From assembly GCA_000092065.1 (NCBI GenBank), contig CP000581.1: a DNA stretch of 64,000 nt. One strand, written 5' to 3'. A program made the translations under genes and the position numbers. The notes beneath the pieces were generated by a model. That model did no database searches and was not told the DNA's origin. It saw only the letters and a program-made list of their open reading frames with translations. The DNA comes from Ostreococcus lucimarinus (lineage: Eukaryota). Each line of letters opens with the position of its first letter. Within the stretch, counting starts at the first letter, position 1. Of this stretch, positions 30,714-64,000 are shown piece after piece.

Positions 30714-32132
30714 ATGGCGACGGCGCCGAGTAAGATTGTGGAGAAGAAAGACTTCCCAGCGGGGCTCGGGGTTTTAGTCGTCGACGATGACTTGTTGTGC
30801 CTGAAAGTCGTGGAGAAGATGCTGAAGGCGTGCAAGTACAAAGGTGCGACCGATGGCGCGCGAGCGTTGCGCCCCGACGTTGAGACGACGCGGCGACGGA
30901 AGACACGGCGACGCGAACGCGAACGCGGCGGCGAACGATGCGAAGGAATACGTTCGATCGTGCGTGGGCGCGCGATGGACGCGCGAACGCTCGCGCGAGG
31001 CGCGCGAGGCGTGCGATTGGGAATCGGGCCCTCATCGGAACTCACCCTGGGACCCAACCCTGGACGAGCTAAGGGTTGACAAATCGGACGGGATATGACA
31101 CGACGAGCGACGCGACGAAACGAACGCGACGACTGACGAAATGATGACGATGCCGTTGAACGCACAGTCACCGCGTGTTCCACCGCCAAGACTGCGCTGG
31201 AGATTCTGCGAACGCGAAAGGAAGAGTTTGACATCGTGCTGAGCGACGTGCACATGCCAGACATGGATGGGTTCAAGCTGTTGGAGATCATTCAGTTTGA
31301 ACTCGCTTTACCCGTTCTCATGATGAGTGCGAACTCGGACTCGAGCGTGGTATTGAGAGGGATCATTCACGGGGCGGTAGACTATTTGTTGAAGCCCGTT
31401 CGAATCGAGGAGTTGCGTAATATTTGGCAACACGTCGTTCGACGCGACTACTCGTCGGCGAAGAGCTCGGGATCGGAAGACGTGGAGGCTTCGTCGCCGA
31501 GCAAGCGTGCGAAAACGTCTGGGTCGAATTCGAAGAGCGAAGAGGTCGATCGGACGGCAAGCGAGATGAGTTCGGGCAAAGCGAGGAAGAAACCGACGGG
31601 TAAGAAGGGAGGCAAGAGCGTCAAGGAAGCGGAAAAGAAGGACGTCGTGGATAACTCGAACTCAAAGAAGCCTCGAGTGGTGTGGAGCGCTGAGCTCCAC
31701 GCGCAGTTCGTGACCGCAGTGAATCAACTTGGAATCGATAAAGCTGTGCCAAAACGTATTTTAGATCTCATGGGGGTTCAAGGTTTGACGAGAGAAAACG
31801 TCGCGAGTCACTTGCAAAAGTATCGACTATACCTCAAGCGTTTGCAAGGAAACGATGCCCGCGGCGGCGGCAACGCCTCTTCGACTGGGGCCCGCTCAAA
31901 GGACGGACAGTTGAGCAATAACGGCTCCAAGATTTCCACGAGCACGTTCTTAGGGGATGATACCATCTTTCACGGCGGCGATTTGAGTCTCCCCGGGGAC
32001 CTTCTCGTTGACGATCCGACGTTCGATCCATCTTTGCTCGCGCCTTTGGATTTAGAAAAGGTGGGCAAAGGCGACGTTCTCGGCGTCGATGCGTCGGACA
32101 ACATGCTGAACTTTTTCTTTGAAGGAGATTAG
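30714..32132 (+). CDS. type-B (GARP/Myb) two-component response regulator, two exons
   Basis: Exon 1 (30714-30843) gives 'VLVVDDD...CKYK'. Exon 2 (31168-32132) gives 'VTACSTAK...SDVHMPDMDGF...DYLLKP' (the D-D-K receiver) and a GARP motif 'VASHLQKYRLYLKRL'. The exons are joined by a GT...AG intron. The ORF track splits this gene into 30714-31079 and 31236-32132, the latter starting at a GTG. Confidence 0.75.
30844..31167 (+). other. spliceosomal intron (324 nt) in the response-regulator gene
   Basis: The donor is 'AAAg|gtgcga' and the acceptor 'gcacag|TCACC'. Joining them restores ...CKYK-VTACSTAK..., which is colinear with plant ARR-B receivers. Confidence 0.7.
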
Positions 32133-32369
32133 ATCACATTCCAGTAAATTATAGCTGCACGCGATGACTGTTTATCGAGCGCACGTCGGCGGTGTTTAGG
32201 TTTTCATACGCCGACGGTTTCAGACGTCATACGCGATTGGTAACGCTCGCGCCGCGCGAGCGTCTCCCCGGTCGCCTTCATTTAGTCCATACAACAATTC
32301 ATCACCACATCTTTAGCACAACGCTTTAATCGATCTATTTCGATTCATTCACTAACTATTTTACGCGCC

Positions 32370-38672: not shown

Positions 38673-40637
38673 CTACCAAGCGTCGACAAAATATCGACCA
38701 GTCGTTTCTAATTTAGTCATGTATCGTGCGCTTGCGTCCTCGTCGAGCAATCCTTGCTCGCGCACGACCTCCTGGATCGCTTTGTGCACGGCCGCGGGCA
38801 TCTTTTCTGCCGATCCAGCTACGAAGACTTTCGCTCCAGCCTCGAGCAAGGACCATATACGTTTCGCTTCATCCTTGACGCAATCTTGCACGTATCGCTT
38901 CTTCGCCTCTGGCACCATGCGAGAAAACGCGACGACAACACCTCCGAGTGAATCGCCGCCAGAACCAATTAAAGAGCCATCTTTTTCAATTTGTTTCCAC
39001 TCTTCCTTATATAAATAATCGTGCCGTGCGTGACGGCATCCAAACACGACCAATGCGCTTGCCGTGGAGGATTGCAGCACGCGTGCTCGAACAAAGGATC
39101 GAAATGGTGCGATACCAGTGCCCGGACCGATGAGAATCAATGGGGTCTCGGGTGGTGGTAAACTGATGCTTCCTTTGGTGATAGAGTATTTCACGCGCGT
39201 GCCAACGTCCAAAGAGTTCAGCCAGGAAGAACATAATCCTTTCCGCGCCCGTTTCATCGGTGTCACCCATTCCGCAGCGGCAACGGTGATGTGCGTCGCC
39301 GCCGTCCGCTCAGTATCCGCTGGAGAAGACGATATGGAATAATATCGCGGATGCAAGTGAGGAGCTACTTGCAAAAGCCACGCCAGTGACGGTTTTAACG
39401 ACGGAAAATCGTCGAATATTTCACACACCGTCCTTCGCTCGCGCTGATTGTACTTGTACAAATCCACAGCGCCCTCTGCCGAGGCAAAGTACTGAAGACG
39501 CTCCTTTTCGTGTTCGCTTTCGGCAAAATGACTCATGACCTCAAAAAAGTAACGTCTTGGGGATGCAGAATCCACATCGATCGCACCTGCGAGTAAGTAC
39601 TTGACCTGAATCAACGGGAACAATGCAGCCTTCGTCTCGGGCGCCGACGAAGGATAAACGCGCACCCAAGCATCCGGAGACATGCCCAGACGCTCAATCA
39701 GAGCCGAGACTTTGGCGTCGGCGGCACGCGTTGCGAAAGGTATCACGCCTAACACATCACCTGCTTCGTAGTGCGCGATCGAGGCGTCTAAGGTTTGAAA
39801 TTCTAGGTGACGAACCTCCTTGACGGCGTCGTCACTCGTCAAACATCTATTCTCACTCACGAATCCATCGTAATACGTTGTGTCGCGCGATTCGCGAGCT
39901 TCGTACTCAGCTTTTGAGAATGAAGTGCTAGCGTCGCTCGCATCAGCCGCCGCGAGCGCGAGTCGCAACGCCGTGTGTGCCTCCATCAGGCGTTCTCCGC
40001 TCGCCTCGACAATGCCCTCTGCGCAGGCAACCTCTTCCACGACGAATCTACAAGCGGGTAACGGCGCACTCGAGAGCTCGGCCTCGGTGAGGTCTTTCAA
40101 GTGCGGTGGCAACGGAAATATCTCGCGCATAGATTTCCACAACTCTCTCAACCACGGATTCAACGCCGCCTCGTACCCAAGTGGGTGCTGGTCATCTCCC
40201 AACCCAAGCGCTTCAATCGCGTTTGCCCCGAGCCCTTGCAGGCGCCGAAAAAGTTTTTTAGCGGTGACGTTATATTTTTGATATCCCGAATCGCCCAACC
40301 CGAACACGGCGTAGGACATGTTCGTCAGAGACGTCGCGGACAAACTCCGCCGCAGCAAAAATCTCCAAAAGCTCTTCATGTTCCTCGGTTCGTCACCCTG
40401 TCCTGTGGTGGACGTGACAAACACCACGCACCGCTCGCGAGGTAACGTTCGCACGTCATATCCCTCCATGGTCATGAGCACGGGGGCGTAATGCTTGAGC
40501 TTGGCCTCTCTCACGACGCGCTCCGCGACGTCTTGCGCGTTCCCAGTCTCCGAACCGTAGAGCACGAGCACGCGACGAGCGGGCGATGCGCCCGACGCGT
40601 CCGATGCGCCCGATGCGCCCGCGCCTGCGCTCACCAT
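38673..40637 (-). CDS. NDOR1: NADPH-dependent diflavin oxidoreductase (NDOR1/Tah18/ATR3)
   Basis: There is an N-terminal flavodoxin domain ('VLVLYGSETGNAQDVAERV'). The FAD/NADPH domain has 'RYYSISSSP', 'GPGTGIAPFRSF' and a C-terminal '...RYFVDAW'. Confidence 0.85.
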   Translation of the reverse strand: MVSAGAGASGASDASGASPARRVLVLYGSETGNAQDVAERVVREAKLKHYAPVLMTMEGYDVRTLPRERCVVFVTSTTGQGDEPRNMKSFWRFLLRRSLSATSLTNMSYAVFGLGDSGYQKYNVTAKKLFRRLQGLGANAIEALGLGDDQHPLGYEAALNPWLRELWKSMREIFPLPPHLKDLTEAELSSAPLPACRFVVEEVACAEGIVEASGERLMEAHTALRLALAAADASDASTSFSKAEYEARESRDTTYYDGFVSENRCLTSDDAVKEVRHLEFQTLDASIAHYEAGDVLGVIPFATRAADAKVSALIERLGMSPDAWVRVYPSSAPETKAALFPLIQVKYLLAGAIDVDSASPRRYFFEVMSHFAESEHEKERLQYFASAEGAVDLYKYNQRERRTVCEIFDDFPSLKPSLAWLLQVAPHLHPRYYSISSSPADTERTAATHITVAAAEWVTPMKRARKGLCSSWLNSLDVGTRVKYSITKGSISLPPPETPLILIGPGTGIAPFRSFVRARVLQSSTASALVVFGCRHARHDYLYKEEWKQIEKDGSLIGSGGDSLGGVVVAFSRMVPEAKKRYVQDCVKDEAKRIWSLLEAGAKVFVAGSAEKMPAAVHKAIQEVVREQGLLDEDASARYMTKLETTGRYFVDAW

Positions 40638-40782
40638 CGCGATCGAGTGACGCGCACCGACCTAGTTTGCGCCGCGCGATGGCGACCCAAAATGCGGCTG
40701 CAGGCCGCTGGTGCGGCCGCCCACGAAACGCCAGTGCGCGGCGGTCGTGGGCGCCGGTGCACCGTCGAAGCGCGGTCCAACC

Positions 40783-41256
40783 ATGGCGACCGCTAGAGAC
40801 GATGGTCGTTTCAATCCCAGTCCTGCGCTCGCGCGCGACGTCGAGGCGTCGGGCGCGCGATATCCACCGGTTAAAGTTCGCGCGGCCTCGCTGGGAACCG
40901 TCAAGGCGCGCGCGCTGCATCACCAAGCCACGGAAGAAATGGTGCGAGATTTGTTAAAGTACGACGAAGTGCCGGGAATAACGAACATGTCGCACGTCGC
41001 TTTGCCCCCGGGCACCGTTATCGATCGTCACGTCCATCCGAGCAAGTACGAGGTATTCTTCGTGCAAAGCGGACGAGGTGCGTTCAAGGTGTGGAGACGC
41101 AAAGCGAGCGAAGCGGAAGAGGCGCGAGAAGAAATTGACCTCAGACCTGGTGTGAGCGTATACGTTGGACCGGAAGAACCTCACGAGATTATCCCGCATG
41201 GTGAGGACGAGCCGTTGATGATGTTGTACTTTGGCGTCGTAGCGCCAGAACCTTGA
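40783..41256 (+). CDS. cupin-domain protein
   Basis: 'IDRHVHPSKYEVFFVQSGRG...PEEPHEI' is cupin_2-like, with its His/Glu metal ligands. The start is trimmed to 'MATARDDG'. Confidence 0.55.
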   Translation: MATARDDGRFNPSPALARDVEASGARYPPVKVRAASLGTVKARALHHQATEEMVRDLLKYDEVPGITNMSHVALPPGTVIDRHVHPSKYEVFFVQSGRGAFKVWRRKASEAEEAREEIDLRPGVSVYVGPEEPHEIIPHGEDEPLMMLYFGVVAPEP

Positions 41257-41347
41257 GGTCGCCGGCGTTTCTCTCGCGTCGCGGCGATGCTGTCCGTATT
41301 ATTATTAGTTGTTGTAAACGATGAAGGAAGTAGGAACTCATATTGAG

Positions 41348-43639
41348 CTAGTGAAACGATTTCGACTGTACGGCGAACGTGTGCTGTACTTGCGCGATTG
41401 GTATCGCATCGGATGTTTTATTGTCTCCAAGTGCTGCCTTGAGAGACGACAGTCCCTCAACCACATGTGCTTCAAGTTCTCGCCAAGTTCGTAACACGAG
41501 CTCGTGGACAATCAAATCTTTCATCAAGGTTTTTGCACAAGCTTCGACACTCTTTTCAACGCCCCGAACGTTCGGAATGGCGATCTTATACAGCTTGAGT
41601 AGGTGTGCGCGGCGGTCGCCGGCAGGCTGAAACGTTCCCACACTCGAGCCCGAGCGCAAAGCGTGGATCTCCCCGAAGAGCTTTCCAAAATGCTTTTCGC
41701 AAACCTCCGCGACGTAAGTTGAGCTCGCTAAAGTCATGAATCCGTCCAATTGCGCCGCTAGTCCGGCAGAAACGTCGCCTTCATTCTCACCTCTTTCGAA
41801 ACACCGAGCAAGTGAAAAATAGCCTTGAAGTCTTACTCTGTCATGTCTGAGTGAAGTCGTGAGTTTCGATTCGAGTAAAAGTAGAGATGAGGCATAAAAT
41901 TACCTCTTGGATACCGCACTCGCTGTATGTTCTATGTGCGTGCACGCTACATCACACATCGACAGAAAACAAGCATCAGCTGAGTGTTCACCATTTGCCG
42001 CAAACACGTTTTGAAGCTGCATATGAGCTGAAATAATTTTTCTCAACGGATCGAGCTCTGGCATGCGAAACTCATATTCTCCACCCGAATTGCGCGTCGA
42101 TGATTGCTTCGAGCGAAGCGCACTCAGCTCTCGAGCGAATTCCTGCGCAGCGCTGTTGATGTGCGCTTCTACGACGACCTGTAATTAAATCAAATAAATA
42201 AATCAAATCGAGCGCAGAGAAAACAATGCGATGACGCACCTGAAAGTTATTGACGCTTTCAGTCAACGCATATTGACCTAGAGCGTGCGTCGATGCAGAA
42301 GTATCAATCAAAGCCGCCAGAAACGCCACGCAAAGTGCGCTATTGGTCGCAATCGATTGTTCAATTAAATCGAGCAAACATCCCTCCAATCCTGTAATTA
42401 TTTCCTGATGATAGAATTCGCGATTATTCGACGCGATTCGGAATGTCGTGCCGAGAAACGTTTCCACCGTATTTCCCACAGTCTCCATGGCTGCAATCGC
42501 TGTCCTTAGCGCTTGAAACGCGACCTGCGAATTAATTATTTAATTTCATCCAACATCGTTCATTGAAATCGAGAAGAACTCACGTTTATGGCATCTGCTT
42601 CAGTATCTTGTTTGTCGATCGCGTCCATAATCATCACTATATCGCATCGCATCACTTCAACGCAGCTTTGGCAATATAGACGCGCGAAAGCATCCGCGGT
42701 TGTTGGACTTAATTCGGACAAAGCGTCAAATAATCTCTCGAATTTCTTTAAGTCGCTGCGTTTGTGAGCGATAGATGTGAGATTCGTGACAATATTTATT
42801 TCTGTCATGCACCGTACCTTTGTATTGCTTCCCACGTGTTCGCGTCGCTCATCGCTTTTTTTTGCGTCGACCATCGCACCCATCCCTGCAAGAAATATTA
42901 ATAAATTAATTCCAACGAGCAACACGATACACACCTCTGCGATCGCTCGCAAGCGCTCAAATACACGCTCAAACGCGTGCATGGCTATTACTTCTACTTG
43001 TTCGCGCGCTTCGACGGTGACTCGCATCGTCGCAATCCCTGCTGGTAAACCATCCCTACGTGAGACCGAGTTAGTTTCGGCGTGTAAAGTCGAAACGTCG
43101 CGCACAGCGTACCTCAGCTTTCTTTTGAAGTCCAACAGCCGACGCAGTGCGTCGTAGATGGTCAAAATGCCTCGTTCATCATCGAGTGAATGCTCGCGGA
43201 CTGCACGCTCGACACCAACAGGTAACTCTAACTCCCCAAGCAAGCCCCGCACGGCAGCTGCGAGCGCTCGCTTGTTCTCGTTGGAGACGTCTCGCTTGTC
43301 GTCTCTGCCTTTGATAATCTCGATGTTCCTACGCATATTAACCAGTTTTGTTTCAAACACCGTGGACCACGCGTTCACGTCCTCCATCGAGCGTTCGACT
43401 TCGGATACGTACGCGGACAACGAAGCCATGACGCTTCCCGATGACTCCAACGCGTCAGAGAGAGCGCGGTCGGCGTCTTCAAGCTCGAGCTTTAGGATCC
43501 TATCCAAGCTCGAGATCCCTTCCGTCGTCGCATGACGAGTGCTTTCGAACAGCTCGCCGATCACTCGCTCCTCTTCCTCCTTCAACACGCGCGTGGACGT
43601 GCTCGACACCTCTTCCGTCGTCGTCCCCGCGAGCCGCAT
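41348..43639 (-). CDS. five-exon gene encoding a coiled-coil/helical-bundle protein (CATCHR tethering-subunit-like, identity uncertain)
   Basis: The exons are 43639-42931, 42885-42584, 42524-42240, 42178-41904 and 41846-41348. They are joined by four short AT-rich GT-AG introns with consistent phase, giving 689 aa. The N-terminus is coiled-coil and the remainder is α-helical. Confidence 0.5.
41847..41903 (-). other. intron 4 (57 nt)
   Basis: On the minus strand the sequence runs 'gtaattttatgcctcatc...cttcactcag'. Confidence 0.65.
42179..42239 (-). other. intron 3 (61 nt)
   Basis: On the minus strand the sequence runs 'gtgcgtcatcgcattg...tttgatttaattacag'. Confidence 0.7.
42525..42583 (-). 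other. intron 2 (59 nt)
   Basis: On the minus strand the sequence runs 'gtgagttcttctcg...aattaattcgcag'. Confidence 0.65.
42886..42930 (-). other. intron 1 (45 nt)
   Basis: On the minus strand the sequence is 'gtatcgtgttgctcgttggaattaatttattaatatttcttgcag'. Only this donor keeps the reading frame. Confidence 0.55.
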
Positions 43640-43745
43640 CGATGCGACTCGAGGTGGTTGGATTTGTTCGATTCTTTGCACCCGTCCCGACGCGCGAAGA
43701 CGGGTGTCGAGACCGTTTTGGACGTGAATTCTACTTGAGATAAAC

Positions 43746-43913
43746 TTTTTCCGCGCGTTCGCGCGCGTTCGCGCGAACCCACGCGCGTTCGCGCGAAAAG
43801 TCGAGTTTTGTGGACGCGAGCGCGCGCGCCTCGAGAGAGTTTTCGAAATTTCGAAACGCGAGCGCGGCGCCACAACTCGGCTCACGCGCGTCACGCGCGC
43901 GTGAAACGCGATG
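43746..43913. promoter_or_regulatory. cluster of E2F-like (TTTSSCGC) and CGCGCGTTCGCGCG elements in a divergent promoter
   Basis: 'tttttccgcgcg', 3x 'cgcgcgttcgcgcg', 'gcgcgaaaa' (= TTTTCGCGC) and tandem 'tttcgaaatttcgaaacgcg' lie between the CATCHR-like gene start (43639, minus strand) and the condensin H start (44282, plus strand). Confidence 0.4.
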
Positions 43914-44281
43914 TCGCGCGACGACGGAGGCGAGACGTGGACGGAAAACGTCTTTCCGCCCGCCAGTGCGCGCTCCCCCGCCCTGGCGCGCGACACCTCC
44001 GCGTCTCGATCCCGCGCTCGGTTGTCCGCGGAGACCGCGCGCGAGCGTCACGAGCGTCGCGCGCTCGATGCGGTGGATCGAATGGTGGTGAAATCCGCGA
44101 TGGAGGATTTGAGAAAGGTGGCCGATAGTTTAGACGCGGACGCGTGGATGTATCGACCGAAGCGCGAGGCGTGAGGACGGCGCAAAGTTCGAGGCGTCGG
44201 TTCTTCTCGACTTTTAGTCTAGCTCTAGTTTCCATGTATGATTCTTAGTCTGCGGCCATTTTTCATCGAAAAGGGGAACGA

Positions 44282-46384
44282 TTGAGTTCACCGCGAACGG
44301 GCGATTTGCGGCACTCGACGGCGCGTTCGCGGTACGAAGACGCGATGTCCGGCGTGTTGACGCCACACAATCAGAAAATTAAACGCGGTGGGCGGAAGAA
44401 GACCCCGCTGAGCCGATCACCCGCACCATCCGGACTGTTATCCCCGAACGATGATCAGCTGGAACGACAAAAATCGCTCCTGTCCCGCGAAGCGACGGAA
44501 GAGATGCGGCGGGATTTCGCCACCGAGCTCGAAGAAAATGCGGAATCTGCGCCGGTGAAGAAGCCGAGTAAACTCGAAGAACTCACCGGAGCGCCGCAAG
44601 CACCACCAAAACCGGTCAAGAAGCTGTCGGCGGACGCGGTTTTGAACCTCTACACCAACTGCATCAAGCTCGCGTCGGAGAACAAAATCAACGCCAAAAA
44701 CACATGGAGCCTGGCTTTGATCGATCACATCAGCGATATCGTGAAGAATGAAAAAGATGAAGACAATCAAACTAACTTTCAAAAGGCGAGCTGCACATTG
44801 GAAGCTGGTGTGAAGATTTATGCATCGCGCGTAGATTCGTTCCACAGCGAAACTTTCAAGATGCTCGGTGGGATGAACAAAGTCTCGTCCAACGGCGAAG
44901 AAGAAGAAGATGATGGACGACAAGGACTTGGAGACGGTGCGGATGGGAGTCAATTGCCGGAAGACGGCGATGGAGCGAAAACAAAGAAACGACGAGCGAC
45001 CGTAAACACTTTGGAGATGCCGGACGCACACTCGTTGAAGCAGCTCGACGAAACGTTAGTCGTCGATCCTCTTTTCCAAAAGACGAGTGCCATGTTTGAT
45101 GAAGGTGGTGCCTCAGGTCTTCTATTGACAAACTTAGCCGTACACAAAGGGTGCAATATTTGTTTTGACTCAGAAGAGGTGCCAGACTACACGAAGGGCG
45201 AGGACGCGCCGCTCACGGGGACGCTCGATCTCTCGTCGTTGCGTGCTTCAATCGAAGCTGCGACCACGGCCATGGCGTCGGTGTCGCGCATCACACCTTC
45301 TATCGATGAAGTTCAAGCTATGCTCACGGAAGTCACGGGTGTTGCTCCCACCAAGGCAACTGAAGAAAGCGCAGAGGGTGCGGGCTCATTCTTTACGGGT
45401 TCGTCGCTCGAAGGGATAAACTTGGCAGAATACGACGACGAAGATGAAGATATTGCGGAGGAGTCGCCAGAGGACTGGGCTGCCGGTGCTGATGGTTTCG
45501 AAGACGAAAATTGGGCGGAAGATGGCGACCATGGTACATCCATGGATGATGATACCGTTCTACCGACCCAAGAAGGTGGTTTGGAGTGGATCGTTTCATC
45601 TGGCTTAGGTGGCAAGATGGGCTGGGCTGGCCCGACACACTGGCAATTCAGAGCTCCACCTCGCGCCAAATCGAGTGCTAACGGCGAAGACGACGGTGAA
45701 AACAAAAACCAAAAGAAGAGAGGGAAGGGTGAGCTCACTTATGACTTTGAAAATCCGAGCGAGCTTGATGAACGAAGATTTGAACTCGCCGTCGACGAGG
45801 ACGACCTGTTGTTGGCCACAGCACCGAGTGCGTCCGACACTCTCCTTCCACCAGATCTCGGTTATGAACCATCCAATCTGATAAAACTTTTCTTGAAGTC
45901 TCAAAACGTGGCGAGCTTGGTAAATAGTGAATCCATGACGAATCAAGACGAGGAAGGGTTCACCTTTGGCGCAGATGAAGCTGGAGGCGAATTCGATGAT
46001 GGTGAGGAGCTGGTCGGTGAAGCGGGCGGGTGGTATGACGCCAATGAGTTAGGAGACGATGACGATTTTGTGGATGCCCCGCGACGTGTGGAAAAGATTG
46101 AGGTCAATTACGCTAGGACCACGAAGCAAGTGAACGTCCGCGCTCTCAAGCAAACGCTCTGGGCCAACCTCGAAGAATCAACGTCAGAGGAAGACGTGCA
46201 TTCTTTCAATGAGATGCTCCGGGAATTCCCCGTGAATAACCCAGCTGGACATGTTGAAGATATCAGCGTTCATATGGCGTTCATTTGCGCCCTTCACCTT
46301 GCTAATGAGCACGGTCTGGTCATCAAGAGCGTCCCTGCCATGGACGATTTATGCATCTCAAATGTTCCATGTTCAGTGAATTAG
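44282..46384 (+). CDS. CAPH: condensin complex subunit H (kleisin CAP-H/Barren)
   Basis: The N-terminal kleisin motif is 'LNLYTNCIKLASENKINAKNTWSLALIDHISDI'. An acidic central region follows, then the C-terminal winged-helix region 'VNVRALKQTLWANL...'. TGTAA is at 46399-46403, just after the stop. Confidence 0.8.
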   Translation: MSSPRTGDLRHSTARSRYEDAMSGVLTPHNQKIKRGGRKKTPLSRSPAPSGLLSPNDDQLERQKSLLSREATEEMRRDFATELEENAESAPVKKPSKLEELTGAPQAPPKPVKKLSADAVLNLYTNCIKLASENKINAKNTWSLALIDHISDIVKNEKDEDNQTNFQKASCTLEAGVKIYASRVDSFHSETFKMLGGMNKVSSNGEEEEDDGRQGLGDGADGSQLPEDGDGAKTKKRRATVNTLEMPDAHSLKQLDETLVVDPLFQKTSAMFDEGGASGLLLTNLAVHKGCNICFDSEEVPDYTKGEDAPLTGTLDLSSLRASIEAATTAMASVSRITPSIDEVQAMLTEVTGVAPTKATEESAEGAGSFFTGSSLEGINLAEYDDEDEDIAEESPEDWAAGADGFEDENWAEDGDHGTSMDDDTVLPTQEGGLEWIVSSGLGGKMGWAGPTHWQFRAPPRAKSSANGEDDGENKNQKKRGKGELTYDFENPSELDERRFELAVDEDDLLLATAPSASDTLLPPDLGYEPSNLIKLFLKSQNVASLVNSESMTNQDEEGFTFGADEAGGEFDDGEELVGEAGGWYDANELGDDDDFVDAPRRVEKIEVNYARTTKQVNVRALKQTLWANLEESTSEEDVHSFNEMLREFPVNNPAGHVEDISVHMAFICALHLANEHGLVIKSVPAMDDLCISNVPCSVN

Positions 46385-46479
46385 CGAATTTTGATTGATG
46401 TAAGAACAATAAGAAGCTAATTTTAGCCGCACTGAGATTTGAAAATTAATAATGCGAATGCTGCTTCGCCGCTACTCAA

Positions 46480-48261
46480 CTACTCGGCGGCTTTCGCCGC
46501 TGCTTCTTCACTTTCCCACTCGCCGCTCGAGTGGTTCATGAGGGCCCGCGTGATGTCCCCCTTCGCGCAACCTGCCTCGTTGAACTTGGCAATCGCGGCT
46601 ACTGCGTCGTCTTTCCAGTTCTTAACGCTTCGTGAGTGCTTCACCTGAGATTGCTCGTAGAGCACGTTGCCCCACAGGATTAAGATCTGCGCCTTGACAC
46701 CATTCGACTCTTCACTCTTCTCAGTTAGCACGACGTCTCTCTCAGCGGGTGGAAGCATCTCCATGGCCTCTTGGTACTTGGTGATGGCGAGGGCAAACAT
46801 TACGTCCGCGGTTTCCTCCGCCTTCTTGACCTCGGCACCTTTTACTTGACTAGACAAGTGGTGGTACAACTTGCCACGCTCGAACGCTTGCTGGCCCCAT
46901 GTGATGGGAGCTTCAAAATACGTCGGCTTAATTTTGAGAGAGGCCGCAAAACGTTCACAGCACGCCTCGTAATCTGCATCTAGCTCAGCCATGTGAAGTT
47001 TCGCAGCCACCATGAGCGCCTCATCACTCCCACTTACGCCGTCGTCATCCTGGCTCCCACAAGCATCGATGATTCTGCGTGAGTTGCACGCATACACATT
47101 ACCCCAGTTGAAGATGGCGGTGGCGGCAGCTTCTTGGAACTTATCAGTTGCACTGACGAGGAGTGCTTTCGACTCCGGCAAGCCCACAGTTTCTTCCAGC
47201 ACCTCGCAACACTTCTCAAGTCCGATTTCACGCAACTCAAGAGGGCCTTCCTTGGGCGCCAGGTCGCCAAGCCGCTTGCGGAAGAGCGATGCAAAACTAA
47301 GGAGCCACTCGTCAATTTCGATGACGTCTTCGTTGATCTCATCGTTTTCTTGCAATTGCGCTGGCTGTACTTGCTCGGGCGTTTCCAGAATCTCGGTATT
47401 AGACGCAAAAGCGGTGACTTGAATGACTGGGATCGATGTCTCTGCCTTTTCACCGCTCTCCTTGGCACGGTGCTCAGCCATGGCGGCGAAGTTCGTCAAG
47501 GCGGATCGTAAATCCATGCGAGATGTGATGGTGATGAAGTCATTGTCGAAGTCCTTGTACTTGACAGCTACGTGCGTTTTGATGTCAAACTCTTTCTTGA
47601 TGGAGTCCGTCAAGTCAGAATATTTCAGAGACACTGGAAGCTGAATGCTCTTGACTTCCCCTTCGTACGTGACGTCAAAGGTGAATTTCGTTTCGGCCGC
47701 TTGCTGTGCCGCTTGTTGACGAAGTACCTCGGCGCGTAACGCAGCGATTTGCTCCTTCGTGTACTTCTGAGCTGGTTGCTTACCGACGCCCGCTCCTCCC
47801 ATGCCCGCCGGACGGCTGGCTTTTGCGGCCTTGGCAGCCAAGGATTTCACCTTGTCCAATCGATTTCTCACAGAATCATCGGACGAATCGATCGCGAGGG
47901 CACGTTCGATATCTGTCTTGGCCTTGGTATACTCCTGCAGCGCCTCGTACGCCGTTGCGCGGCGCAGCAACGCTGGTTTGTAAGTGGGCTGCGCATCGAG
48001 CGCAGCATCACATTCGTTGATAGCCTGACTTGGGACACCTCCTCGCAAGTAAACCGCCGCCTTATTAGTTGCGATCGCAACGAATTCAGCACTCCCTCTG
48101 AGAGCGAGTTGCTGCGCCTTGTTATACTTGGCGAGCGCTTCGCCGTGGCTGCCCTTCGCAAACAAGACATCCGCTTCCAACTTTAGCTGTTGCGACTTCT
48201 TCGTGAACGCCGCGATCTCGCTCGTCGGACCCGGAATCTTCTTCTTCGTGACGGCGACCAT
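46480..48261 (-). CDS. TPR + PB1 domain protein (Phox-like)
   Basis: There are N-terminal TPRs, a central PB1 'KFTFDVTYEGEVKSIQLPVSLKYSDL...DFDNDFITITSRMDLRSA' and a C-terminal TPR-like helical region. Confidence 0.75.
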   Translation of the reverse strand: MVAVTKKKIPGPTSEIAAFTKKSQQLKLEADVLFAKGSHGEALAKYNKAQQLALRGSAEFVAIATNKAAVYLRGGVPSQAINECDAALDAQPTYKPALLRRATAYEALQEYTKAKTDIERALAIDSSDDSVRNRLDKVKSLAAKAAKASRPAGMGGAGVGKQPAQKYTKEQIAALRAEVLRQQAAQQAAETKFTFDVTYEGEVKSIQLPVSLKYSDLTDSIKKEFDIKTHVAVKYKDFDNDFITITSRMDLRSALTNFAAMAEHRAKESGEKAETSIPVIQVTAFASNTEILETPEQVQPAQLQENDEINEDVIEIDEWLLSFASLFRKRLGDLAPKEGPLELREIGLEKCCEVLEETVGLPESKALLVSATDKFQEAAATAIFNWGNVYACNSRRIIDACGSQDDDGVSGSDEALMVAAKLHMAELDADYEACCERFAASLKIKPTYFEAPITWGQQAFERGKLYHHLSSQVKGAEVKKAEETADVMFALAITKYQEAMEMLPPAERDVVLTEKSEESNGVKAQILILWGNVLYEQSQVKHSRSVKNWKDDAVAAIAKFNEAGCAKGDITRALMNHSSGEWESEEAAAKAAE

Positions 48262-52603: not shown

Positions 52604-54892
52604 ATGGCGCGCGCGGTTGGTGACGACGATGATCATCCTTCGACGTCTTCCACGGACGACTTACCGGTCTCGCGTTACGGTGCGTCGAGCGTTACGGAGA
52701 GCGCCGACTGGACCCCCGACCGCGAACGAGAGGAGCATCTTTTTCTTAGAGCGACGACGACGGTGACTGACGAGCGCGGTGATCGACGAACAGCGAACGA
52801 TATTGCGAGTGCGGTAAAGACGAATGCGGTGACGGTTGTGATTGGGGAGACGGGGAGCGGGAAGACGACACAGATTGCGCAGATTCTCCTGCGCTCAGGC
52901 GTCGTCGCCGACGGCTCGGCGGTGGCGGTGACGCAGCCGAGACGTGTGGCAGCTGTTTCCGTGGCAAAACGCGTCGCAGAAGAAATGGGGGTAGAGATTG
53001 GGAAAGAAGTTGGGTATTCGGTGCGCTTTGAGGACAGAACGTGCCGCCTGACGAGGATAAAATATTTAACTGACGGCACGTTACTGCGAGAGCTTCTCGA
53101 AGACCCGACTCTGTCGCGTTACAGTGTCGTCGTCTTGGATGAGGCTCATGAGCGGTCGTTGCACACAGATATATTATTCGGATTATTGAAGAAGCTCGTG
53201 TCCGCGCGTGAACTGAAGCTGGTGATTACTTCGGCCACGCTCGACAGCGAAAAATTCTCGACGTATTTCGACGACGCACCGGTGTTCACCGTGCCTGGAC
53301 GCACGTTTCCGGTTCAAATCGCGCACGCCACCGAGGCTCCAAAGTCGTACTTTCAAAGTGCGATTGAAACGGTGGTGGATGTACATGTGAATACCGGCCC
53401 TGGGGATATGTTGGTGTTCCTAACAGGTCAAGAAGAGATTGAAAAAGCGTGTCGGGCTGTGGAGGCTCACGTGCGATCGATGCCCGAGGGAGAGTGTCCA
53501 GATGTGCAAGTCTTGCCACTCTATGCATCACTCCCACCGGATATGCAGTCGAGGGTGTTTCACCCACATGATCCGAACGTGCGACGAATAATCTTTGCGA
53601 CAAATATTGCTGAGACGTCGCTGACGGTCCCAGGAATCGTTTTTGTGATTGATCCAGGCGTGGTGAAGCAGGTTGAGTACGATGCGATGACGGGAATGAA
53701 TGCATTAAAAGTAGTGCCTATCAGTAGCGTGCAGGCGAAGCAGCGTGCAGGACGTGCAGGAAGAACGCAAGCTGGGCGATGCTACCGACTGTACACAAAG
53801 GACGCGCTCGAACTCGACATGCCAGCGATCACTCGGCCAGAGATCCAACGGACATGTCTAGTCGGTACGATTCTGTATCTGAAGACACTGAATCTAAAAG
53901 GACTAGATGTGATGACTTTCGATTTCTTGGATCCTCCAGACACTGCACTCATCGCAGATGCTTTGCGCCAACTTTATTTCGTTGGTGCAATCGATCCCGA
54001 TGGGAAGGCAACTTCTATTGGACGAGAGATGAGTTCGCTTCCACTTGAGCCATGCTTATCGCGTGCGATGGTCGAAGCGAAACGCCTTGATTGTGTTGCA
54101 GATACTGCAACAGTTGCCGCGATGTTGAGCGTCGAAAGAGTGTTTTTAGGTCAGCACCGAGATGCAACTGAGAGTCTTCACGAGCTTGCGACTCACGAAG
54201 ATTTTCTTCTTGGCGATCACGCGGTGTTACTTCGAATCTATCAAGCCTGGGAGAGCAGTGGATATCAAAGAAAATTTCACCAGCGGTATTCGTTGTCGGA
54301 TCGAGGAATGGAGTTCGCGCGAGAGATACGAAAACAATTACTTGGAGTGTTCAAGGACAAGCGTAAAAGCGATAGGAACGACTTTGATTGTTTCTCACGA
54401 ACAGATGAAGGTCTGAACCGATTGCGCCAATCGCTGTGCGCAGGCTTCGTGACAAAGATTGCGCATCGACTACCGAATCATAATGGCTACAGAACATTGG
54501 GAGAAAATTCCACGCTGTGCCAGGTCCACCCTTCTATGGCTCGCCAACTCGCCGACAAAGACGGTTTGCTTCCAGAGTGGATCGTTTACCATGAGTTGAT
54601 CACGACTTCTCGACCCTTTCTCCGCCACGTGTGCAAAATTGAGCCAGAATGGATTTCAAAGCAAAGAGAGCTGCTCTCGAAGAAGGTGAACATTCATCGT
54701 CTCTCTGGCGGCGTGTTGAGCCCCGGGGATGCTGAAAGCACGGACGCAGCGAGTGGGCACGAAGCCGACACGGTGGACGCGAATAAAGCGCCAGTCGAAG
54801 GACGTAGAATCACCGACGAGCAAGTTTCTGCCGCGCGAGAGCGCTTCCTGGCGCGTAAGAAACAGAAATTAGCGAAATTAGCGGGAAAATAG
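52604..54892 (+). CDS. DEAH-box ATP-dependent RNA helicase (DHX family)
   Basis: 'GETGSGKTTQ', 'DEAHERS', 'SATL', 'TGQEEI', 'FATNIAETSLT', 'QRAGRAGR' and HA2/OB C-terminal domains are all present. The start is trimmed to avoid overlap with the divergent CDK gene (the ORF track starts at 52397). Confidence 0.85.
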   Translation: MARAVGDDDDHPSTSSTDDLPVSRYGASSVTESADWTPDREREEHLFLRATTTVTDERGDRRTANDIASAVKTNAVTVVIGETGSGKTTQIAQILLRSGVVADGSAVAVTQPRRVAAVSVAKRVAEEMGVEIGKEVGYSVRFEDRTCRLTRIKYLTDGTLLRELLEDPTLSRYSVVVLDEAHERSLHTDILFGLLKKLVSARELKLVITSATLDSEKFSTYFDDAPVFTVPGRTFPVQIAHATEAPKSYFQSAIETVVDVHVNTGPGDMLVFLTGQEEIEKACRAVEAHVRSMPEGECPDVQVLPLYASLPPDMQSRVFHPHDPNVRRIIFATNIAETSLTVPGIVFVIDPGVVKQVEYDAMTGMNALKVVPISSVQAKQRAGRAGRTQAGRCYRLYTKDALELDMPAITRPEIQRTCLVGTILYLKTLNLKGLDVMTFDFLDPPDTALIADALRQLYFVGAIDPDGKATSIGREMSSLPLEPCLSRAMVEAKRLDCVADTATVAAMLSVERVFLGQHRDATESLHELATHEDFLLGDHAVLLRIYQAWESSGYQRKFHQRYSLSDRGMEFAREIRKQLLGVFKDKRKSDRNDFDCFSRTDEGLNRLRQSLCAGFVTKIAHRLPNHNGYRTLGENSTLCQVHPSMARQLADKDGLLPEWIVYHELITTSRPFLRHVCKIEPEWISKQRELLSKKVNIHRLSGGVLSPGDAESTDAASGHEADTVDANKAPVEGRRITDEQVSAARERFLARKKQKLAKLAGK

Positions 54893-62768: not shown

Positions 62769-63710
62769 TCAACCGCGGAAGCCAAACGATGAAAGCCCTT
62801 GTAAGATGCCGAGTGCTTCGCGCTCCGTCGCGAGAAAGACGCGGTCGACCGCGAGCTCGCCCTTTGCCACGCGATCATTCGCCCATTCGCGAAGCTCCGA
62901 CTCAGCATTTCCTACTATGATACATCTCGTCTGCCCCGATAACATTAAGATATCGTTCCCGCTGTCCCCACAGGCCACGGTCTCTAGAAGTTCAAAGCCT
63001 AACTGTTTTCGCACGTATTCCAAGCTTTCTAATTTCCCCGCCCCCGCGCTCACGCAGTCCACGAACTTCCAACCGCCCGAACCGCTGATGATGATCTTAT
63101 ATTCTAATCCGTTCGACTCGCACGCGCTTCGTATGGTATCCTCCACTACATTCACGAGCTCATCCTTCACTCCCACCGTGACTTTGTGTCTGTTCTGTTC
63201 ATCTGCAGGTCGAAAGTGCGCATTGTCATCGCCGCACGCATCGATCGCTCCTCGTGCCGCCGCCGTAACGACATCACAGCACCAGTTGACGTCTAGTGCC
63301 GCCGTCCACTCGGCGTCTTCGACCCATGGGCGCGAAACGTCGCCGCTCGGTTGAAACACTTTTGTGCCTACTGCGCAGATGAGGCCATCCGGCTCAACCA
63401 TGACTTGCGATTTCGTCTCGATAAGCTTGGTGAACGACTCAAGCGATCGTCCGGTGGAGTACACGAGCTTAGACCCAGGAGGTTTTGCGCTCGATTCCCA
63501 AAATTCTCGGAACGAGCGCGTGTATTCGTCGTTCCCAACCATGGTGCCATCGAGATCGGAGACAATCAAAACGGGTGTTTGAGCCGATTTATCGACCGAC
63601 GTCGACGCTGCGGCGGCACGCACGCCGCGAGATCGACAGACAACAATATTTGACGCGTGATTGGCGCGCGCTAGGCGCGTGGGAGCGATCGAAGCTGCGC
63701 CGAGTCGCAT
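62769..63710 (-). CDS. SPP: sucrose-6F-phosphate phosphohydrolase (sucrose-phosphatase)-like HAD protein
   Basis: HAD motif I 'LIVSDLDGTMVGNDE' resembles the SPP N-terminus. 'GDSGNDILM' is motif IV. Confidence 0.65.
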   Translation of the reverse strand: MRLGAASIAPTRLARANHASNIVVCRSRGVRAAAASTSVDKSAQTPVLIVSDLDGTMVGNDEYTRSFREFWESSAKPPGSKLVYSTGRSLESFTKLIETKSQVMVEPDGLICAVGTKVFQPSGDVSRPWVEDAEWTAALDVNWCCDVVTAAARGAIDACGDDNAHFRPADEQNRHKVTVGVKDELVNVVEDTIRSACESNGLEYKIIISGSGGWKFVDCVSAGAGKLESLEYVRKQLGFELLETVACGDSGNDILMLSGQTRCIIVGNAESELREWANDRVAKGELAVDRVFLATEREALGILQGLSSFGFRG

Positions 63711-63831
63711 GTCGAGTTATGTGGATACCGTAGACCCGTACGTTTCGGTGTCAACTTTTCGTCAAAAAATTCTACAGCATCGTTCTATATGAGGATATCT
63801 ATCGGGCGCAAGTCATAAACACATCATTCTC

Positions 63832-64000
63832 TCACGCCGTCTTCGCCGCCGCGCGCTTCGCCTTGATGTCAGCCACCGCGGATCGAATCGCATCCTCGGC
63901 GAGCATCGAACAGTGCAACTTCACCGGCGGCAAGTTCAAATGTTTCGCTATGTCCTGATTCTTGATCGTCACCGCCTCATCTACGTGCGTGCCTTTGATC
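63832..64000 (-). CDS. ISCU: iron-sulfur cluster scaffold ISCU/Isu1 (C-terminal part; the gene continues beyond the window)
   Basis: Reverse-strand translation gives '...IKGTHVDEAVTIKNQDIAKHLNLPPVKLHCSMLAEDAIRSAVADIKAKRAAAKTA*', which contains the conserved 'LPPVKLHCSMLAEDAI' motif. Confidence 0.75.
   Translation of the reverse strand, partial: IKGTHVDEAVTIKNQDIAKHLNLPPVKLHCSMLAEDAIRSAVADIKAKRAAAKTA

Follow-up and report, generated by a model that had tools for sequence, protein, structure and literature searches.

A seven-exon Ostreococcus lucimarinus gene read as exocyst Sec3, with six short introns among intronless neighbours

The stretch of DNA analyzed here, from the very small green alga Ostreococcus lucimarinus (64,000 nucleotides (nt), NCBI GenBank assembly GCA_000092065.1, contig CP000581.1; hereafter the window) is filled by about 30 long single open reading frames (ORFs), and one gene on its minus strand, at 41348-43639, is interrupted by several short introns. 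How is this gene spliced, what does it encode, and how do its introns relate to the intron types known from the genus? Our analysis showed that the region is very probably a single-copy gene for the exocyst subunit Sec3 (EXOC1), with six short GT-AG introns and a product of 648 amino acids (aa) that is all-helical and lacks the PH domain. The locus is an ordinary spliced gene of a known family with known spliceosomal introns, and no new kind of system. What the analysis adds is the corrected seven-exon model of the 648-aa protein, the flagging of a misannotation and a mislabel in the databases, and an example of introns resembling those of BOC1, a region of the big outlier chromosome (BOC), in a gene outside it.

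Transcripts and gene structure

Transcription of the gene and removal of all six introns were shown by an assembled RNA contig (L001; Logan SRR17229684_47366, 2731 nt), which matches the window in seven blocks at 100% identity. Exactly the six intron segments are missing from it; otherwise it equals the spliced model base for base, save for one extra A that is taken up below. This contig was first found in a homology search, via a 375-aa protein from a Logan assembly that was already spliced at the three downstream junctions. Two further records, a 578-aa UniProt entry from the MMETSP set (A0A7R9SZJ7, Ostreococcus sp. 'lucimarinus') and a 638-aa transcript-derived protein from JGI, each equal the six-intron translation over their length and cross all junctions; at the true intron 2 junction both read RAIAE directly followed by GWVRW. 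The resulting features are listed below, all on the minus strand, with guanine-cytosine (GC) content given for the introns.

41348-43639: coding sequence (CDS) read as Sec3/EXOC1, seven exons and six introns, CDS 1947 nt, 648 aa
43639 and 41350-41348: start codon (ATG at 43639) and stop codon (TAG)
43640-43816: 5′ untranslated region (UTR) up to the end of the transcript contig, L001 beginning at 43816; holds three CGCGAACGCGCG repeats
43113-43639: exon 1, 527 nt, aa 1-175 plus 2 nt; Sec3 coiled-coil (CorEx) region
43056-43112: intron 1, 57 nt, 54% GC, GTACGC...CTAAC...TAG, phase 2; incoming frame stop-free
42935-43055: exon 2, 121 nt
42886-42934: intron 2, 49 nt, 33% GC, GTGTGT...TTGCAG, phase 0
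42818-42885: exon 3, 68 nt; frame differs from that of the read-through ORF; holds a run of eight A (A8)
42756-42817: intron 3, 62 nt, 42% GC, GTACGG...ACGCAG, phase 2; incoming frame stop-free
42584-42755: exon 4, 172 nt
42525-42583: intron 4, 59 nt, 32% GC, GTGAGT...AATTAAATAATTAATTCGCAG, phase 0; stops in three of three frames
42240-42524: exon 5, 285 nt
42179-42239: intron 5, 61 nt, 34% GC, GTGCGT...TTACAG, phase 0
41904-42178: exon 6, 275 nt
41847-41903: intron 6, 57 nt, 39% GC, GTAATT...CTCAC...TCAG, phase 2
41348-41846: exon 7, 499 nt including the TAG stop; C-terminal helical bundles

The splicing pattern was derived by enumerating GT..AG segments, which gave three obvious introns (introns 4-6) and three upstream candidates at 43112-43056, 42934-42886 and 42817-42756. 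Splicing of the three obvious introns alone already closes the frame and yields 705 aa. In the six-intron alternative, a 49-nt and a 62-nt intron flank a 68-nt exon and an in-frame 57-nt intron is removed in addition, yielding 648 aa; introns 2 and 3 jointly restore the frame because their lengths sum to 111 nt. The original prediction, made from the sequence alone, had recognized a multi-intron minus-strand gene running from the ATG at 43639 to the stop at 41348, which is borne out by L001, and had placed three introns exactly (42583-42525, 42239-42179 and 41903-41847, all absent from L001). It counted four introns instead of six, however, since the stop-free segments 43112-43056 and 42817-42756 were missed. 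Its 45-nt intron can only be 42930-42886, the sole AT-rich GT..AG segment of 45 nt in the gene, whose donor lies 4 nt too far 3′ compared with 42934. Only by adding this segment is the predicted length of 689 aa instead of the true 648 aa obtained, leaving about 100 residues wrong after residue 176.

Two further sequence properties had been put forward. Stops were said to occur in all frames; counted per frame from the first base of each intron, this is the case for intron 4, which has no stop-free frame, but not for intron 5 (one stop-free frame) and intron 6 (two). The exons were said to exceed 60% GC and to contrast sharply with the introns. Measured exon GC is 43.6-56.5% (CDS 51.5%, GC at third codon positions (GC3) 55%) and intron GC 32-54% (39% overall), so that the contrast is real but moderate, at about 12 points.

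The reference protein (ABO94132.1 / XP_001415840.1 / A4RR57) has 359 aa and corresponds exactly to the ORF read without splicing, which starts at 43639, includes translated intron sequence and ends at a stop within intron 4; the annotation takes this single-exon form because introns 1-3 are stop-free in the read-through frame of this strain. The ORF list also splits the gene on the minus strand, into 42560-43996, 42072-42488, 41900-42064 and 41348-41749; all of these pieces but 41900-42064 had already been named in the original prediction. For the exact 648-aa sequence, no entry was found among a 15-billion-protein collection.

Both ends of the assembled transcript show additional features. 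At its 3′ end, L001 runs about 600 nt beyond the Sec3 stop (40742-41347), over a convergent cupin gene (40711-41256, plus strand), which reflects either overlapping 3′ ends or two transcripts merged by unstranded assembly. At the other end, three tandem CGCGAACGCGCG units and an E2F-like TTTCGCGC are located at 43750-43810, within the assembled 5′ UTR. This is also the upstream region common to Sec3 and the divergently oriented gene for condensin-H (Cnd2, ORF from 44282).

Protein identity and orthologues

To follow the gene beyond this strain, we used related sequences that comprise a 95%-identical strain (L002), a third Ostreococcus lineage (L004) and O. mediterraneus (L006, species assigned from the neighbour genes). 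To obtain spliced models for L004 and L006, every GT..AG option was scored by comparison with the protein of O. lucimarinus. The assignment to Sec3 is based on profile searches with these proteins. The Pfam family Sec3_CC (PF09763) matches aa 45-169 of the O. lucimarinus protein with an E value of 8.7e-11 (42.2 bits vs a cutoff of 27.1) and is above cutoff in the L004 and L006 orthologues, too. An exhaustive HMMER search of 1.84 billion representatives returned 33 matches, eight of them full-length; among these eight, Sec3_CC was present in all, Sec3_C-term in six and the N-terminal Sec3 PH domain in three. When a profile of the three Ostreococcus orthologues was aligned with a profile of eight full-length Sec3 proteins using hhalign, a probability of 100% and an E value of 2.8e-39 were obtained over 620 columns. 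The alignment spans query positions 17-646 and template positions 203-888 of 895, that is the whole Sec3 protein minus its PH region.

The predicted fold agrees with this assignment. With an alignment of 27 sequences, AlphaFold gave an all-helical model with a mean predicted local distance difference test score (pLDDT) of 77.6, compared with 43 from the single sequence. The model shows the CATCHR fold, in which tandem helical bundles form a rod as in Exo70, Exo84, Cog and the Munc13 MUN domain. A CATCHR-type helical tethering subunit had already been suspected in the original prediction, and the sequence profiles now name this subunit as Sec3/EXOC1. Structures of yeast Sec3 are available (PDB 5YFP/6VKL); a sequence search of the PDB with the 648-aa protein returned nothing relevant, and alignment-seeded searches of a 5.8-billion-protein index returned only Ostreococcus-like fragments.

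Compared with canonical Sec3/EXOC1 (PF09763 plus PF20654), the Ostreococcus protein shares colinear homology from the coiled-coil/CorEx region to the C-terminus, the all-helical CATCHR architecture and a Sec3_CC match above cutoff. It differs in that it lacks the N-terminal PH / PIP2-binding domain (PF15277), thus beginning about 200 residues into the canonical architecture, and in that it is highly divergent and fast-evolving within the genus; its identity to other Sec3 proteins is 16-20%. No Pfam match to the PH domain was found at E <= 1 in the three Ostreococcus orthologues. Nor is there a PH-coding exon upstream, as the transcript extends only 177 nt beyond the ATG on the 5′ side and no PH domain is encoded in the 5′ UTR or the upstream region. 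Among the relatives, the PH domain is present in P0126 (encoded on contig L007), P0130, P0137 and P0138 and absent from P0135 and P0139. The protein is still classed as Sec3 because the PH domain is accessory and is lacking from the latter two relatives as well. In terms of function, the long N-terminal CorEx helix would be expected to pair with the other subunits of subcomplex I (Sec5/6/8) to tether secretory vesicles, as judged from general exocyst knowledge (PMC6784791). A Sec3 protein without PH domain would be unable to read PI(4,5)P2 or Rho GTPases, and membrane targeting would then have to be left to other subunits.

As a next step, we looked at the organization of the gene and its surroundings in the related sequences. 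Gene order is common to all three Ostreococcus lineages (TPR-PB1 / Cnd2 / Sec3 / cupin / flavoprotein). Strain L002 has kept all six GT/AG pairs; its intron 6 differs by a 5-nt indel, and its intron 3 has gained an in-frame TAA. The L004 orthologue has 659 aa and is 48% identical, with introns of 60, 60, 62, 59, 50 and 48 nt (30-57% GC); the L006 orthologue has 655 aa and is 38% identical, with introns of 58, 59, 62, 60, 61 and 55 nt (28-48% GC). A comparison of intron positions, as had been suggested along with the original prediction, placed all six introns of O. lucimarinus, L004 and L006 at identical codon positions. The read-through frame meets a stop within intron 3 in both L002 and L004, and within intron 1 in L006; the stop-free read-through of introns 1-3 is peculiar to this strain and not conserved. 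In a comparison of 38673-48261 with L003, L004 and L006, the flavoprotein, cupin, Cnd2 and TPR-PB1 genes are 64-83% identical, and Sec3 is the fast gene of this block.

More distant relatives share part of this pattern. In L008, a relative of 47% GC whose Sec3 is 32% identical and adjoins a convergent cupin gene, intron 5 is located at the same place (58 nt, 28% GC), and intron 6 is probably present as well. A picoeukaryote metagenome contig of 60% GC (L007, 3618-6287) encodes a PH-bearing Sec3 in a different synteny; it has the intron-2 position in common with Ostreococcus, while introns 1 and 6 are absent. The middle of the L007 gene also shows a cluster of short, lower-GC interruptions.

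Several points weigh against the assignment to a spliced Sec3 gene. Concerning the transcript, L001 carries nine A residues (A9) instead of the genomic A8 (~42861-42854, L001 position ~856), which breaks the frame in L001 only. A genomic frameshift was considered and rejected, since A0A7R9SZJ7, the 638-aa JGI protein and the related strain all show A8; the additional A is an assembly or sequencing error, or slippage. Concerning the family, the Sec3_C-term Pfam entry (PF20654) remains sub-threshold on single sequences, with E values of 0.003-0.007 in two orthologues and no match at E <= 1 in the O. lucimarinus protein, and a fold search cannot separate Sec3 from other CATCHR subunits. Concerning the complex, a survey of exocyst subunits counts no more than four in O. 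tauri and Micromonas (PMC6784791). The exocyst may be reduced or work differently in these algae, and assembly of this protein into an exocyst is a prediction from sequence. The identity of Sec3 between Ostreococcus lineages is only 38-48%, compared with 64-83% for the four flanking genes. Such fast evolution could mean relaxed constraint; it also fits a reduced or modified complex, as proposed for O. tauri and Micromonas in the same survey (PMC6784791), which may itself be affected by truncated models like ABO94132.1. Finally, recognition of these short AT-rich introns by intron definition, presumably aided by the drop in GC content and by loose YTNAY branch sites, is likewise a prediction.

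Intron type and chromosomal setting

In Mamiellophyceae, short (40-65 bp), AT-rich and motif-poor introns are ascribed by the literature to the low-GC BOC1 region of the big outlier chromosome, in Ostreococcus chromosome 2 (PMC3491373, PMC3879977, PMC2367439). BOC1 introns have been defined as being shorter than 75 nt, below 43% GC and located in BOC1 (PMC3879977). All six Sec3 introns (49-62 nt) are within the size limit and five of the six (32-42% GC) within the GC limit, intron 1 having 54%; none is in the defining location, as the gene lies on a record read as chromosome 1. The introns start with GTACGC, GTGTGT, GTACGG, GTGAGT, GTGCGT and GTAATT (introns 1-6) and end with TAG in intron 1 and CAG in the other five. 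CTGAC is found in none of the six, and there is no discernible canonical branch motif. Each intron holds a loose match to YTNAY at 8-30 nt from its 3′ end, in the form of CTAAC in intron 1, CTCAC in introns 3 and 6, and TTAAT, TTTAT or TTGAT in introns 2, 4 and 5. Besides that, a AATTAATTAAT-like tract lies just before the 3′ splice site of introns 4 and 5 in the three Ostreococcus lineages and also at the start of L008 (1-80), and may act as the branch element or the 3′ element in introns of this kind.

The Sec3 introns thus share with BOC1 introns (Moreau et al. 2012, Verhelst et al. 2013) the short length, GT-AG borders, in five of the six a GC content of 42% or less, the lack of GACTGACG/CTGAC, the occurrence of several introns per gene and conserved positions. 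They are unlike them in that the gene is off chromosome 2 and that intron 1 lacks the AT-richness and contains a good branch site, CTAAC. Canonical Ostreococcus introns have a mean length of about 188 nt (PMC2367439) and are described as GC-rich with an extended GACTGACG branch point (Irimia and Roy 2008, as cited in PMC3879977). With these, the Sec3 introns have in common the GT-AG borders and mostly donors with G at +5 (GTGCGT, GTGAGT, GTACGC), whereas they are three to six times shorter, AT-rich and without branch motif. An example of the canonical type is found in the same window. The response-regulator/GARP-Myb gene at 30714-32135 (plus strand), named in the original prediction as the other intron-bearing gene, has one intron (30844-31167, 324 nt, 65% GC) with the donor GTGCGA and GACTGACG at 31131, 37 nt from the 3′ splice site; its spliced ORF is intact. 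The description of the remaining neighbours as intronless was broadly right, too: a scan for short AT-rich GT..AG segments over both strands (128 kb) gave 13 matches, of which 3 fall in the Sec3 gene and the others are scattered.

The chromosomal setting was determined via the neighbouring genes. Five neighbour ORFs are exact matches to proteins of O. lucimarinus CCE9901 (ABO94123, ABO94130, ABO94133, ABO94134 and ABO93809; 1,152,508-bp record), the match to ABO94130 being at the cluster level, as the exact 654-aa ORF differs from the named 633-aa member ABO94130.1. The 1,152,508-bp record bearing the Sec3 gene is read here as chromosome 1, since no other record is larger and the protein numbers fit within the 684 genes of O. 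lucimarinus chromosome 1 (PMC2367439). Outside chromosome 2, O. lucimarinus expressed sequence tag (EST) clusters contain 276 introns in 221 intron-bearing clusters (PMC2367439), corresponding to ~1.25 introns each. A gene with six introns on chromosome 1 is therefore an outlier.

Why does this gene carry so many introns of the BOC1 type? One explanation concerns only its origin and is compatible with Sec3 function: the gene might have left the BOC1 compartment as an 'emigrant', or form an isolated island of it, and its low GC content and many short AT-rich introns would then be a heritage of the outlier region of chromosome 2 that persisted after the move to chromosome 1. In its favour, five of the six introns are within the BOC1 limits for size and GC (PMC3879977), the kilobase at 42-43 kb is the lowest in GC of the window (45% vs 55.5%), and intron-bearing EST clusters outside chromosome 2 have few introns each, as computed above. 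Furthermore, for about 22% of the BOC1 genes of Bathycoccus the Ostreococcus orthologue lies outside the BOC, and BOC1 functions are enriched in protein transport (PMC3491373). On the other hand, several intronless neighbours have a similar GC3 (0.50-0.56, others 0.60-0.72), so there is no sharp compositional island, and the same non-BOC neighbours are found in three Ostreococcus lineages and in the 47%-GC relative, so any move would be ancient. Chromosome 2 has, moreover, a 'higher proportion' of such introns and not exclusivity (PMC2367439). Sec3 is not listed among the BOC1 families in the supplements of PMC3491373. Altogether, we consider such an origin rather doubtful.

A second, slightly less doubtful idea is that BOC1-type introns are maintained gene by gene and not by the chromosomal location of the outlier region; we put this forward tentatively. 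It starts from the fast-evolving, PH-less Sec3 gene, which lies on an ordinary chromosome and has held six such introns in place all through the radiation of Ostreococcus, at least one of them dating from before it. If the idea were true, the cause might be that weakly expressed genes escape intron loss via cDNA, or that the gene descends from a BOC1 resident, and reference annotations in Mamiellales would systematically truncate such genes, inflating reports of 'missing' exocyst subunits. For the Sec3 gene itself, candidate explanations of its intron retention in comparison to the intronless neighbours are that ancestral introns were kept in a weakly expressed gene, or an ancient descent from BOC1. 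In either case, the gene offers transcript-verified BOC1-like introns off the outlier chromosome together with a canonical intron in the same window. The Sec3 and response-regulator introns could serve as a test case for how the Mamiellales spliceosome recognizes two types of intron.

Competing gene models and database records

The reading of the locus as one spliced Sec3 gene has to be weighed against other gene models. The first is that it consists of two genes, an intronless one for a 359-aa N-terminal protein and an independent one downstream. This is how ABO94132.1 is modelled, as a single exon, and ABO94131 is numbered between ABO94132 and the next minus-strand gene and might cover the 3′ half. 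Against this, a single RNA contig and the 638-aa transcript-derived protein cover all seven exons, the 359-aa model translates introns and stops inside intron 4 with a read-through that is broken in L002, L004 and L006, and the Sec3 alignment is colinear through the whole 648 aa. Two separate genes are hence very improbable. A conserved intron-retention isoform was likewise rejected, since the read-through ORF is broken in relatives, and so was a pseudogene, since four lineages conserve an intact ORF and the gene is transcribed.

For the single spliced gene, an identity as exocyst Sec10 (EXOC5) would be suggested by the source name of A0A7R9SZJ7, the 578-aa, correctly spliced fragment, which reads 'Exocyst complex component Sec10', and the CATCHR fold is common to all exocyst subunits. 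No Sec10 family is listed by Pfam at E <= 1 in the three orthologues, however, whereas Sec3_CC is above cutoff in all three; the full-length relatives found are all Sec3, and the profile-profile alignment with Sec3 extends over the 620 columns given above. An assignment to Sec10 is in our view extremely unlikely; the label on A0A7R9SZJ7 is unsupported, and the protein is Sec3. Hardly more credible is that the introns are recent gains specific to this gene, such as the introner-like elements known from the related genus Micromonas (PMC3879977), as a second copy of any of the six introns is absent from the 64-kb window, the introns are dissimilar to each other, their positions are common to lineages whose Sec3 proteins are only 38-48% identical, intron 5 is also present in the 32%-identical relative and the intron-2 position in the PH-bearing picoeukaryote Sec3. 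The Sec3 introns are old singletons with positions conserved across the genus.

With regard to the spliced Sec3 gene, the main consequence is a correction of the annotation. The entry XP_001415840.1 / A4RR57, a truncated read-through with translated intron, needs replacing by the correct 648-aa Sec3. Proteomes of this kind underlie the exocyst surveys with very few subunits for Ostreococcus and Micromonas (PMC6784791), and stop-free short introns are the kind of feature that hides orthologues from proteome surveys. Current concepts remain unchanged; apart from the annotation, the locus adds a modest evolutionary footnote.

Two further segments in the window resemble introns. A 114-nt in-frame segment at 52680-52793 (plus strand), close to the 5′ end of an ORF for a DEAH-box helicase (ATG 52604), has GTGCGT as donor, GACTGACG at 52765 and CAG as acceptor, and is possibly an unannotated, stop-free intron of the canonical type, as judged from these motifs. 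In addition, one of the few other matches of the scan for short AT-rich introns, a 64-nt GT..AG segment of 42% GC, is located at 63772-63835 (minus strand), just upstream of a 313-aa ORF (62769-63710, minus strand), and may represent a short intron at the 5′ end of that gene.

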